Shown here in pieces: positions 8,311 through 12,227 of a DNA stretch of 64,000 bases. Every line of letters starts with the position of its first letter. Position 1 is the stretch's first letter. This DNA comes from an uncultured Methanosarcinaceae archaeon. Lineage in GTDB: Archaea; Halobacteriota; Methanosarcinia; Methanosarcinales; Methanosarcinaceae. The notes under the pieces are model-generated. The model saw nothing but the letters and a program-made list of their open reading frames with translations, did no database searches and had not been told where the DNA came from. The stretch lies in NCBI GenBank assembly GCA_963727895.1, contig CAVSHT010000004.1, positions 352,001 through 416,000 of the forward strand, written 5' to 3'. Position numbers and translations under genes: made by a program.

Positions 8311-9167
8311 GGTTCCGTTGCAAAAAATATCTGCTAAGGATATAATTAAAATAAAAATGAAATCAAAGATAGTGATATGCTATCTAATTCCTTTAAATGG
8401 AAGCACTTTGTTGGTGAAATTATTTTATTGAATGTTAGATGGTACTTAAAATACCCACTTAGTTATGGAAATTTAAAGGAAATGATGGCAGAAAGAGGGA
8501 TAATAGTCAACCATACAACTATTATGAGATGGGTACATCAATATTCACCTGAAATCGAAAAGAAGGTCAGAAGGCATTTAAGACCAACAAACGACTCTTG
8601 GAGAGTTGATGAAACTTATATCAGAGTTAAAGGTGAATGGAAATATTTTTACCGAGCAGTTGACTCAAATGGAGATACAATTGATTTCATGTTAAGTGCA
8701 AAACGAGACCAAAAAGCAGCAAAACGTTTCTTTAAGAAAGCTTTGAACTCTAATCATAATCAAATTCCAAGAGTAATCACAGTTGACAAAAATCCAGCTT
8801 ATCCACCTGCTATAGATAAACTGAAAAATGATAAAATACTACCTATAAACGTAGGCATTCGACAAATCAAATATTTGAATAACATTATAGAACAGGATCA
8901 TAGATCCATTAAACGAATAGTTAATCCAATGTTAGGATTTCAGTCTTTTCATACAGCCATTAAAACTTTAAAAGGAATTGAAGCTATGAATATGATTAAA
9001 AAAGGACAAATCAAGAACTTAAATTACTCTGGCTTTAATGAAGCTAAATATATTAATCAATTATTTGGAATAGTTCTATAATATTGACATATCTTTTTGA
9101 ATATTTTAACTTTTATTCATTATTCATAGATTTACAGGCTTATTCTAAGATTTTTTGCAACGGAACC
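8311..9167 (+). mobile_element. IS6-family element copy 2 (intact transposase 8377-9081)
   Basis: same IRs and 857-bp length; DETY...DKNPAY...IEQDH. Confidence 0.97.
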
Positions 9168-10199
9168 ACAAAAGCTACCAGCCCGAAAATTGCGTTTGAG
9201 GTATTTACTCCGGAACTTGAAATTATGAATTCTTTCGAACTCTCAAGTGTTGCAGGATTACTGGCATAAGGATCAGAATAGAGAGAAGTTTTTAGCTTTC
9301 CAAGCTCAGGTTCGGAGGTTTTTTTCTTAAGGGGAATTCTGTCAAAATCCACTTTTGCGGCAAGACCAGTGAGAAGTGCTGCAATTGCTGAAGAAAGTCC
9401 TGGGAGCCATGCCACAAGTGAACCCGCTGCACTGCCTGTAAGGATTCCTCTCAAAATTCGTTTTCGAGAAAGTTTGAGTGCAGAAACAGATTCCTCTGGA
9501 ATTTTAGAGCTTGTTAGAAGGCTTATAATTAATTGGGATGCTCCGAAAAGCCCACTCAAGAGGGGAAGGAGTATAGAAGGTTCTCCAAAACTTACAATTG
9601 GAACCATTAGAAATTCTCTGGAAAATGCAAAAAGCCCAAGTAAGCCTGTGATCAAGAATAAAACTAACGCAAAAAATTTGTACTTATATTTTGCAAGTAG
9701 ATTTCTCTTTTTAGAATCGTCATCTTTTTCATTTTTTTCACTTGCAAGCATCAGAAATACTATTAAAATAAGAATCCATGCCATATGCGCTTCAATATAA
9801 GGATAAACAGCTTTAAAAAAGAGAGAAAAAGGTACCACGAAAATCAGAGCGGCAACTACCGAGCCCGCGCTTCCAAGTGCTGAAAGGCGAACTGCTTCGG
9901 CTCCTGCTCCATCAAGCAGAAGCCTGTGTCCTGGCAGGACTGTTAGTGCGGTATCTCCATCCGGCGCTCCTAAAAATATTGATGGGATTATGTCATGAAA
10001 GATCTGAGATATAGCGTTTGAAAAAATAATCACAGCTATGTAAAAAGGTGCAAGTCCTTTCTCAGCTAGGAATGGGGCAAAGGCTACTAGTGCAAGTGCA
10101 AAATTATTTTATGTATTCCAGGAAGAAGACCTGAGATTATGCCAAGAAGGTAACCCCCTAAAATTGACAAAAAAGTAAGAATAAAGAGACACCTTCCAC
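9168..10199 (-). pseudogene. archaeal TctA-family (tripartite tricarboxylate transporter) permease, frameshifted and 3'-truncated by IS6
   Basis: GLLPGIH.NN, IPSIFLGAPDGDTAL..LPGH motifs; frameshift near 10110; C-terminus replaced by IS6. Confidence 0.8.
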
Positions 10200-10635
10200 T
10201 TAGTAACCACCCAATACTTTGTTTAAATCTTTAAAAACTATTACAGGTAGTTACAATTATTTCTATAAACAGATATTTTAAGCATACTTGTGAAAAGAAA
10301 TTGCTTATCATTCAAAATGAAGAATTAAAATAATAGAATAGAATAAGAAAGTGATAAAAAGAAATAGGAACGTTATAAAAAAGAAATAAGAAAGTAGTTA
10401 GATTAATTTAACTATACTAAAAAGATTTAGTTCTTTAATTTTAAAAGTTATAATATAAATTTTTTGTGGTGGAGTTCCGTAATCTTTTATGATATTTTGG
10501 AAGCATATATAAAAATATAATCTAACTGGTTGATAAGTGCCTCAAAATTTTTTGTTCCTTTGATCACATCAAAGAAAATAAAAAATCAATTCCATTTATG
10601 TTTTATATGTGACCGATATCTTATATTATGTAGTT

Positions 10636-10930
10636 CTAAATGCTAATTTTGAATGGGGTTCATGAGTAGCATTTAGTGAATATGTAGAGCAAGGATACCG
10701 AGGTTCGCCATTCCTCAACCTTGTCCTCCATAAGTCAGAAGCTCTCCCTTAATCAGAAGCCACCGAGGTTTTTTGCCATTCCTCAAGCTTTAGTTTCAGG
10801 AGATACTTCATATGGGAAACGGAAAGAGGTTCGCCATTCCTCACTTCCGATTCCCTTAATTTCAGAAGCAAAAAGAAGTGAGAGGTAAATCCCTCTCAAT
10901 ACTGTTTTTCCTCTCACTTCAATTGCCTTC
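10636..10930 (+). ncRNA. candidate multi-hairpin small RNA
   Basis: five inverted repeats; three share GAGG-(TT..GCCATT)-CCTC; TATA-like TTATATTA at 10621. Confidence 0.55.
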
Positions 10931-11318
10931 TTTATGATCACATTTTCATAGTTAGTGTTGTTTTATTTCTCTCCGTTTTTCTAGTATTATTGTTACAATT
11001 TCTATCTCAGCATACTGATGAAATGAAAATTCCTGTCAAACTAGATAATAAATTCACTAATAATTCACTAAAATCAAGAAATAACTTCATCAAAAACAAT
11101 CAAGTTTCCAAAATTGGGATTTTCGGGATTGGAGTAGTCAGAAAAAAGAGAGCTGTAAATATTTGTTATTAAAAACACATACAAAACCATATATATGAGC
11201 GGTTCCTGTTCTAAAAGAACCCTGACATAATATTATTAAAAAAACTTGATTATGTATCTATAGGTAAGGTTTAATTTTTTCAGATTATTTTCAGCAATTC
11301 GTAGAAAAAAGGATTTAG

Positions 11319-12227
11319 ATGACAATCAAATGCAAAAAATGCAATCATGAAGCTATCGTTTTTCAGAAATATTCCGGAATGCATCTTTGCAAAAAACATT
11401 TTGTAGAAGATGTTGAAAGAAAAATCAAACTGACAATCCGGAGAGAATACAGTATCCAAAAAAACGATGTAATAGCTGTTGCCTTAAGTGGGGGTAAAGA
11501 TAGCTCAGTTGCTCTCTATGTAATGCATAAAATTCTAGGGAACAGACCTGACATTAAAATCATAGCAATCTCAGTGGATGAAGGAATAAATGGATACCGT
11601 CCGCATTCCCTAGAACTCGCAAAAAGCCTCACAAAGATGCTTGGAGTCCAGCATGTTATAAAATCTTTTAAAGATGTACATGGAGTAACTATGGACGAGC
11701 TGGCGGCAATGGATCGGGAAAAAGGCGCATGCAGCTATTGCGGAGTTCTTAGGAAAAATGTCCTTAATAAAGCTGCACTCGAAATAGGAGCAACAAAACT
11801 CGTCACAGGGCATAATCTGGATGATGAAGCCCAGACAATCCTTCTTAATCACTTAAGGGGAGATATGGAGCGCATGGTCAGGCTTGCTCCGCCGGCAGCT
11901 ATTGACGGCCTGGTGTTACGGGCAAAACCTCTAAGGAATATTCCTGAAAAAGAAGTGGCACTTTATGCCATTGTAAATTCTCTACCTGTGGATTTTAGTG
12001 AATGTCCTTATGCAGGAGAAGCTTTGCGAGGGGAAATACGTGAGCTTCTGAATAACTTTGAGGCAAAACATCCGGGAACTAAATATTCTTTACTCAGAGG
12101 TTTTGACAAGCTTGCGGGAGCTCTTGCAAAAGAAATGCCTCCTGCACATCTCAAAAAATGCAGGATTTGTGGAGAGACCTGCAATGAAGATGTATGCCAG
12201 ACCTGCAAATTGCTAGGTCGGGCTTGA
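11319..12227 (+). CDS. TIGR00269-family tRNA 2-thiolation protein (NcsA/Ncs6/TtuA-like)
   Basis: N- and C-terminal Zn fingers, PP-loop SGGKDS, CSYCGVLR, TGHNLDD, ECPY. Confidence 0.9.
   Translation: MTIKCKKCNHEAIVFQKYSGMHLCKKHFVEDVERKIKLTIRREYSIQKNDVIAVALSGGKDSSVALYVMHKILGNRPDIKIIAISVDEGINGYRPHSLELAKSLTKMLGVQHVIKSFKDVHGVTMDELAAMDREKGACSYCGVLRKNVLNKAALEIGATKLVTGHNLDDEAQTILLNHLRGDMERMVRLAPPAAIDGLVLRAKPLRNIPEKEVALYAIVNSLPVDFSECPYAGEALRGEIRELLNNFEAKHPGTKYSLLRGFDKLAGALAKEMPPAHLKKCRICGETCNEDVCQTCKLLGRA

Follow-up and report, generated by a model that had tools for sequence, protein, structure and literature searches.

A conserved five-hairpin RNA of Methanosarcina, very probably sRNA124, presents three copies of a GCCAU loop

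What is an intergenic array of hairpins that share one loop sequence doing in the genome of a methanogenic archaeon? The array lies in a stretch of 64,000 nucleotides (nt) from an uncultured Methanosarcinaceae archaeon (assembly GCA_963727895.1, contig CAVSHT010000004.1, positions 352,001 to 416,000; hereafter the window, numbered from its first letter). An earlier note made from the letters alone had flagged a structured element at 10620..10935, and it is intergenic as described, with all of the named sequence elements in place. Comparison with relatives identifies 10624-10927 on the plus strand as a genuine, conserved, structured non-coding RNA gene of ~300 bases with its own TATA promoter. 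We hold with high confidence that this RNA is the orthologue of the small RNA (sRNA) sRNA124 of Methanosarcina mazei: separately transcribed, untranslated, ~300 nt long, restricted to Methanosarcina, very abundant where measured and composed of five hairpins.

Three of the five hairpins present a GCCAU(U) loop on a GAGG/CCUC stem. Folded as the plus strand, 10630-10935 reaches -90.3 kcal/mol, compared with -68.2 ± 5.4 kcal/mol for 100 shuffled sequences, none of which folded as well (z -4.1). The 5' hairpin, SL1 (10636..10676, +), is nearly invariant in sequence and pairs CTAAATGCTA (10636-10645) with TAGCATTTAG (10667-10676). Three units follow on the same strand. Unit 1 (10687..10728) consists of a lower stem GAGCAAGG/CCTTGTCCTC, an internal loop and a GAGG/CCUC stem bearing the loop UUCGCCAUU (10704-10712); unit 2 (10738..10809) carries the loop UUUUUUGCCAUU (10769-10780) on a three-tier stem; and unit 3 (10814..10855) raises GAGG/CCUC and a second UUCGCCAUU loop (10830-10838) on two lower helices (GGGAAACGGAA/TTCCGATTCCC). 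Units 1 and 3 share the core GAGGTTCGCCATTCCTC (10700-10716 and 10826-10842), and the core of unit 2 is GAGGTTTTTTGCCATTCCTC (10765-10784). All three unit loops are predicted to be unpaired. The closing hairpin, SL5 (10875..10920, +), pairs GAAGTGAGAGG (10875-10885) with CCTCTCACTTC (10910-10920). The 5' hairpin, the units, their lower stems and the closing hairpin all lie exactly where the earlier note had placed them.

That note had also described linkers of the form CC.TAA..CAGAAGC recurring three times. Three are present (10728-10742, 10746-10760 and 10853-10869), but only the last is conserved in relatives, as a single-stranded segment (10860..10873, +) that reads ..AUAUCAGAAGCAA.. in their alignments; the first two CAGAAGC linkers are specific to this genome and fall within the stems of unit 2. 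All stems are purine-rich on their 5' side and pyrimidine-rich on their 3' side. Cognate flanks pair at -11.1, -17.9 and -14.9 kcal/mol, poorly separated from non-cognate flanks (-10.1, -13.0 and -12.6 kcal/mol); the only clear contrast is with shuffled flanks (-6.9, -11.1 and -7.7 kcal/mol). When the 3.67-Mb genome was searched for the 17-mer unit pattern with up to two mismatches, four places emerged: the two exact copies at the locus and two on another contig with two mismatches each. A reversed control pattern gave two.

SL5 has a feature of its own. Its large loop holds an invariant AAAUCCCUCUC (10887-10897), also capable of pairing with the 5' arm, and further on a T run (10905-10909). 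Two partners are possible for the 5' arm (GAGAGG), the internal invariant CCCUCUC or the distal CCUCUC; pairing with the former gives a short hairpin and then the T run, a terminator-like arrangement. Sequence changes in relatives fit both pairings, and SL5 could be a switch between two folds or two 3' ends.

Several features delimit the gene. Conservation among relatives extends from ~70 nt upstream of SL1 to ~10925, and the G+C fraction is 0.41 in the RNA against 0.27 in each flanking intergenic stretch. A conserved promoter lies on the upstream side only: a block at 10560..10608 (+) is almost invariant across 20 aligned species, is also present in the sister genus and ends in TTTTATAT (10601-10608), the likely TATA box of the RNA gene. 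The TATA-like box previously placed at 10621 is instead a run at or inside the 5' end of the RNA. The 29-nt promoter core has no second site in the organism's own genome, even at up to five substitutions. We placed the ~300-nt transcript at 10624..10927 (+) by transferring the published ends of sRNA124 through alignment; the 5' end falls between 10624, from that alignment, and ~10631, from the distance to the TATA box.

The published sense of sRNA124 corresponds to the plus strand of the window. The same strand is supported by invariant G.U pairs in a consensus fold of eight species of one clade, and by the change of the upper stem to GAGG/CCUU in several relatives, including the sister genus, because such pairs would be A.C mismatches on the opposite strand. 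Since that opposite strand folds about equally well (z -4.7), folding energy is uninformative on this point.

Is the structure itself maintained? The same five hairpins emerge when 20 species are folded singly and in the eight-species consensus fold, which includes the M. mazei-type sequence and contains 73 pairs. Lower stems differ among clades and retain their pairing. One helix of unit 3, for example, reads CGGAA/UUCCG in the window; elsewhere it is GCCGG/CCGGC or GGUCGG/CCGGUC, and one further species has CCUAA/UUAGG. Stem geometry near the loop is likewise retained through compensating changes, from GAGG/CCUC to AAGG/CCUU. RNAalifold, applied to MAFFT alignments of the full set of 20 species, either joined unit 1 to unit 3 or failed to recover the lower stems, and was set aside. 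Because helices shift register between clades, plain all-species alignments fail, and we therefore used alignments to three covariance models (SL1 + unit 1, unit 3 + SL5, and unit 2), with 45 loci aligned to each. Every one of the 45 searched loci was matched by each model.

In these alignments, 95.4% of cells were paired for SL1 + unit 1 (35-49% when partners were slid), 90.6% for unit 3 + SL5 (35-57%) and 80.2% for unit 2 (34-57%). Cells changed on both sides of a pair numbered 19, 46 and 95, respectively, compared with 7.9 ± 2.0, 15.6 ± 3.2 and 40.8 ± 8.6 in shuffles, and none of 500 shuffles did as well in any of the three cases. Both-side changes affected five of the six pairs of the unit 1 lower stem, all four of the unit 3 middle helix and three of the 11 pairs of SL5, in which 99.4% of cells were paired. 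For unit 3 + SL5 together, 12 of 23 pairs showed such changes, against 7.3 ± 1.4 in shuffles (0/500). SL1 is without covariation and, in the sequences aligned, is simply invariant: its 15 pairs were formed in 99.7-100% of cells across 42 distinct sequences, with both-side changes in none.

The fixed part of the loop is GCCAU, usually GCCAUU. Of 44 homologues, 43 have it in every one of their three units, and in the remaining one the third unit fell outside the motif pattern used. The letters 5' of it vary by unit and clade (UUC, UUUUUU, UGU, UUU, UAC). Because the stems vary yet pair while the loop core stays fixed, an independent RNA under selection for structure is supported, and the earlier argument from varying stems and a fixed loop is borne out by the covariance-model counts across homologues.

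Which RNA is it? We compared the locus with sRNA124 of M. mazei Go1 as it appears in the supplements to the ribosome-profiling (Ribo-seq) study PMC11456600, the source of the M. mazei expression and translation values below. There it is listed as a 301-nt RNA at NC_003901.1:3356386-3356686 (-) from the catalogue of Jager et al. 2009. A homologue in one relative (G012), 74% identical to the window over 377 nt by BLAST, equals the published sRNA124 letter for letter over the ~296 nt compared by eye. The RNA of the window resembles sRNA124 in its full-length homology, the same five hairpins, the same three GCCAUU loops, the same length class (301 nt) and a TctA-family gene upstream. It differs in coming from another species, with about a quarter of the letters changed, mostly in lower stems whose pairing is retained, and in a downstream neighbourhood that is not shared. 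The known M. mazei RNAs sRNA154, sRNA162 and sRNA41, which the note had named for a search, are different genes. A match to a known sRNA, which the note had considered fatal to novelty, does exist in that sRNA124 was already catalogued in M. mazei; it is, however, uncharacterised. We found no function study of sRNA124 in the searchable literature, and its loop sequence and three-loop architecture appear in no paper there. The catalogue entry was thus already known; the family definition with its restriction to Methanosarcina, the covariation-supported five-hairpin structure and the recognition of GCCAU as the fixed element are new.

sRNA124 is strikingly abundant in the M. mazei data. RNA levels, in reads per kilobase per million (rpkm), were 35,475, 52,901, 65,410 and 45,269 over two conditions, and similar in both (PMC11456600). 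Another table of the study gives ~48,800 for sRNA124, with a fold change near zero, and ~28,500 for a methanol methyltransferase corrinoid protein. We infer that these columns are expression means; the abundance of sRNA124 is comparable to that of the most highly expressed genes. For a different relative (G160), the homologous stretch is found in 14 RNA libraries, and four runs from four studies yielded contigs that cover the locus at mean depths of 49, 62, 1,514 and 2,832; as contig means, these depths leave ends, strand and level unreadable and allow for DNA carry-over, and we did not count them as proof of transcription. One of the G160 contigs ends 216 nt past the RNA, beside a contig of depth 6. 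Separately, L125:1-90 of this genome is part of a multi-copy repeat, at which the RNA-library contigs branch into several continuations.

The same data bear on whether the transcript could be a small messenger or dual-function RNA, with a peptide as its product, translated either from an open reading frame (ORF) in SL1 of 9-11 codons (the predicted M. mazei sORF_252) or from a longer ORF. The Ribo-seq authors scored sRNA124 'yes' in manual curation and list two ORFs on it, of 12 codons in SL1 and of 91 codons; both are marked 'not present' in the last column, read here without its heading (PMC11456600). Ribo-seq values of 4,185, 2,888, 2,030 and 1,956 rpkm accompany translation efficiencies that average 0.086 and 0.037 (0.04-0.09 overall), under the mean of 0.19 that the study gives for tRNAs and far from the 1.13 for sRNAs. 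The counterpart of sORF_252 in the window, the mini-ORF MLILNGVHE* (10640..10669, +), is probably not a gene. Its frame, MLILNGVHE(SI), is retained in 39 of 44 homologues, two of these with one substitution, but is shifted or altered in four of six sister-genus sequences and in one sequence of the genus. The AUG sits within the SL1 stem with no Shine-Dalgarno motif visible before it, indels elsewhere in the RNA do not come in threes, and the length of the longest ORF varies between 19 and 92 codons from one homologue to another. Because translation efficiency is very low and the start codon is buried in a stem, we take the RNA to be probably non-coding, and regard a peptide product as very unlikely.

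Could the RNA instead belong to its neighbour, as a cis-acting leader or processed 5' part of the TtuA-like (PP-loop ATPase) gene downstream (11319-12227, +)? The two have the same orientation and lie ~390 nt apart, a TtuA-like gene is found downstream in the 3.3-kb loci of four of 20 relatives, and the RNA-library contigs of one relative continue beyond the RNA. The spacer at 10928-11318, however, is unconserved and only 27% G+C, and SL5 with its T runs resembles a transcript end. Between sRNA124 and the next same-strand gene of M. mazei (303 codons, taken as TtuA-like) lie two features of the opposite strand, a gene of 286 codons and a small ORF, and the catalogue entry treats sRNA124 as a separate 301-nt transcript. 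Because the spacer is unconserved and an opposite-strand gene intervenes in M. mazei, we do not read the RNA as a leader of the TtuA-like gene, and consider any such dependence scarcely credible.

We surveyed relatives for the phylogenetic range of the RNA. BLAST recovered homologues in 20 of 24 genomes of the genus, in 31 of 34 in a wider draw and in all six of the sister genus; matches in other genera were short, chance-level and confined to the A-rich promoter. The covariance model of SL1 + unit 1 likewise matched 31 of 34 Methanosarcina genomes and six of six from the sister genus, and found nothing in 14 further genera of the family, represented by 110 genomes. An exact 17-mer scan of 596 billion bases returned 71 stretches, in which bacterial single matches were about as frequent as chance predicts (roughly 70 expected); the 20 stretches that hold two copies, spaced 124-130 nt apart, all belong to Methanosarcina-type records. 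The gene is single-copy. A TctA-family gene lies upstream of it in 12 of the 20 relatives' loci.

The genus also includes apparent losses. One copy (L108, G008:C91:17900-18800) looks decayed: its promoter has been replaced together with the 5' half of SL1, the GAGG of unit 1 is changed, and ~100 nt with inverted ends CTAGTGTCG...CGACACTAG, resembling a miniature transposable element, lie between units 1 and 2. In a second species (G018; L146, G018:C29:30175-34080), no homologue was found in the 1.5 kb upstream of the TtuA-like gene or elsewhere in the assembly, and the RNA has apparently been lost; those 1.5 kb contain no ORF of at least 80 codons. In a third genome, G162, the contig stops before the expected site.

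What might such an RNA do? We favour, tentatively and short of calling it probable, a multivalent docking platform that acts in trans: its GCCAU(U) hairpins would be bound by a protein, which the RNA would sequester or scaffold. In each of the three middle hairpins, a GAGG/CCUC stem of 4-5 bp closes a loop of 9-12 nt whose 3' side would expose GCCAU(U), for recognition by an RNA-binding protein or by an oligomer through three of its subunits. The variable lower stem would serve as a pedestal, and the invariant SL1, the linker and the SL5 loop may provide additional binding or stability elements. The logic would be that of CsrB/RsmZ with CsrA, carried out through an unrelated motif. Action in trans, the partner and titration are inferred, whereas the gene, its range, its structure and the M. 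mazei expression and translation values are observed. We favour a protein site over a pairing seed because a fixed 5-6-nt motif stands at a set loop position on a short stem that is kept by compensating changes, and because the pedestal stem is variable, the motif is repeated three times and abundance is very high and steady.

Several observations weigh against this proposal. No protein partner is known or predicted, and a literature search on RNA-binding proteins of M. mazei brought up nothing relevant among the 15 papers that it listed. CsrA (PF02599) has no match in the organism's own genome, which is 84% complete, under a search that matched control genomes. Hairpins with a GCCAU loop are not enriched genome-wide: there are 225, of which ~70 lie within one insertion sequence (IS) element and the rest fall within the range of permuted motifs, so there is no sign of a cellular set of sites with which the RNA could compete. 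For a sponge, three sites is a small number. Some lineages seem able to do without the RNA, which is disrupted in G008 and absent from G018. On the structural side, the number of unit 2 pairs with both-side changes does not exceed that in shuffles (13 versus 11.3; 125 of 500 shuffles as good), and the covariation counts come from model-fitted alignments, which favour the structure. Transcript evidence comes from M. mazei; the organism of the window is known here from sequence alone. Of the earlier suggestion of a protein-titrating RNA, the independent structured RNA is supported; the sponge is a candidate role, for which no CsrA gene was found. A bolder version, in which sRNA124 is the first archaeal protein-sponge or scaffold RNA, specific to Methanosarcina, holding three copies or one trimer of an RNA-binding protein and setting the free level of a global post-transcriptional regulator, strikes us as somewhat unlikely.

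The IS element in question is IS1-like and present in ~70 copies over many contigs of the genome (for example C3:89112 and C4:8240), none of them seen inside the window. At its start the transposase gene reads MNCPRCNSSSHKK..RQRYKCHDCGY, and within it lies a perfect hairpin whose GCCAU loop resembles those of the RNA by coincidence.

The principal alternative is a base-pairing regulator, in which the three loops, perhaps joined by the CCUC arm after stem opening, would bind AAUGGC or GAGGAAUGGC contexts in a single mRNA or in several, at the start codon or the ribosome-binding site. Precedent speaks for it: sRNA41 of M. mazei reportedly acts through conserved loops. The only archaeal precedents in the genus known to us, sRNA154 (PMC11456600) among them, act in this way. 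The unit loops are predicted to be open for pairing, the complement of GCCAUUCCUC reads as a Shine-Dalgarno-like GAGG and then AUG, and the invariant CCCUCUC in the SL5 loop resembles a stretch that could pair with ribosome-binding sites. The fixed loop core, however, is only 5-6 nt long and the adjoining loop letters vary.

Target searches returned little, although they were crude, made without gene calls or an accessibility model, so that weak or imperfect targets would escape them. Complements of at least 11 nt to units 1 and 3 are absent from the genome outside the locus, and the complement of their shared 10-mer, GAGGAATGGC, occurs nine times elsewhere against ~7 expected. The sole 15-nt complement to unit 2 lies in DNA shared by one of 40 other genomes of the genus. 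Besides the locus there are nine AATGGC clusters, and the two inspected fall in the coding sequence of two pdxS-like genes. The 5' regions of the two flanking genes pair with the RNA no better than shuffles do: 97 and 139 of 200 shuffles did as well. The multi-site antisense reading of the earlier note, GCCATT against AAUGGC, drew negative results in the complement, 10-mer and conservation tests, crude as these are, and stays a candidate. With only five to six loop letters fixed, variable 5' neighbours and no extended complement elsewhere, we favour the protein platform, and judge base pairing unlikely, though by no means far-fetched.

Two observations from these searches may be recorded in their own right. 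The 15-nt perfect complement, at G000:C9:386395-386409 (L141), matches the unit 2 loop together with its 3' stem and lies over the ribosome-binding site of an ORF of 27-30 codons. The two pdxS-like genes (pyridoxal phosphate synthase, from translation by eye) are nearly identical and lie on different contigs (G000:C5:337420-337950 and C18:3229-3760).

How does the RNA compare with regulators of known type? It shares with the bacterial CsrB/RsmZ RNAs a logic alone, namely several hairpins with the same short loop motif, high abundance and no coding role. CsrB and RsmZ carry a GGA motif at 8-22 sites, whereas the present RNA is archaeal, bears GCCAU at three sites, in loops UUCGCCAUU and UUUUUUGCCAUU in place of many GGA loops, matches no Rfam family at gathering score, nor a CsrB/RsmZ model at E values up to 10, and comes from a genome in which no CsrA gene was found. 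The Staphylococcus aureus RNAIII and Rsa RNAs, whose repeated C-rich loops (UCCC) pair with Shine-Dalgarno sequences, also repeat one loop motif on several hairpins of a single RNA; the motif here is instead a fixed GCCAU, with no target known. Genus-level conservation, conserved single-stranded loops and a trans-encoded position are shared with sRNA154, sRNA41 and sRNA162 of M. mazei, which are nonetheless separate genes, and our crude searches turned up no mRNA target for the present RNA. In PMC3177094, sRNA154 is described as a 130-nt RNA between MM3337 and MM3338, induced by nitrogen limitation and associated with the NrpR operator GGTA-N6-TACC. The GGTA half of that operator is absent from 10500-10630. 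Beyond sRNA124, the RNA fits no family in which its membership can be confirmed.

The earlier note had called for an Rfam search. It gave no match to the locus at gathering score or above chance; two eukaryotic small nuclear or nucleolar RNA families appeared at E values of 0.74 and 3.8, far under their gathering scores. This result also bears on the idea that the RNA mimics parts of a tRNA and so engages a tRNA-handling enzyme or the ribosome. By comparison with tRNA consensus sequences, the GG-UUCG at the start of units 1 and 3 (GGUUCG) is T-arm-like, and every loop contains GCCA, like the acceptor end, and CAU, like the initiator anticodon; a tRNA thiolase-like gene also adjoins the RNA. 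Yet UUCG is missing from unit 2 and from two of three sister-genus units, the loops are 9-12 nt rather than 7 nt long, there is no free 3' end, no tRNA-like family matched, and the neighbourhood is not retained in M. mazei. We consider tRNA mimicry most improbable.

Other classes were tried and set aside. A type III antitoxin (ToxI-like) was rejected, as only the 17-20-nt cores repeat, the stems differ, and the next gene is the PP-loop/TtuA-like ATPase gene 390 nt away. An H/ACA or C/D guide RNA was rejected on the Rfam result and by eye against guide-RNA consensus sequences: internal loops are 4-6 nt by 1-2 nt, and no tandem G.A motif is visible. By eye, many species, though not all, have AUA or ACA after unit 1. 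The signal recognition particle (SRP, 7S) RNA lies elsewhere, with RF01857 (Archaea_SRP) matching G000:C12:325850-326164 at 205.9 bits and not the RNA locus. A CRISPR-like array was also considered and rejected.

Mechanisms have been worked out for few archaeal small RNAs, and we know of no protein-titrating RNA described in archaea. An RNA that is very abundant in a model methanogen, present genus-wide and built on a simple repeated motif is open to direct experiments. Should a protein partner be found, it would reveal a new regulatory layer in organisms important for methane production; even without one, sRNA124 gains a defined family, structure, boundaries and phylogenetic range.

Finally, we note a peculiarity of the gene upstream. 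The TctA-family gene beside the RNA (9140-10033, minus strand) has 297 codons, against 470 in its M. mazei counterpart, and covers profile positions 44-304 of 423. It is directly adjoined by an ORF for an IS240-type DDE transposase (8377-9081). Because the TctA-family gene is short and abutted by this ORF, the transporter gene may have been cut by an insertion.

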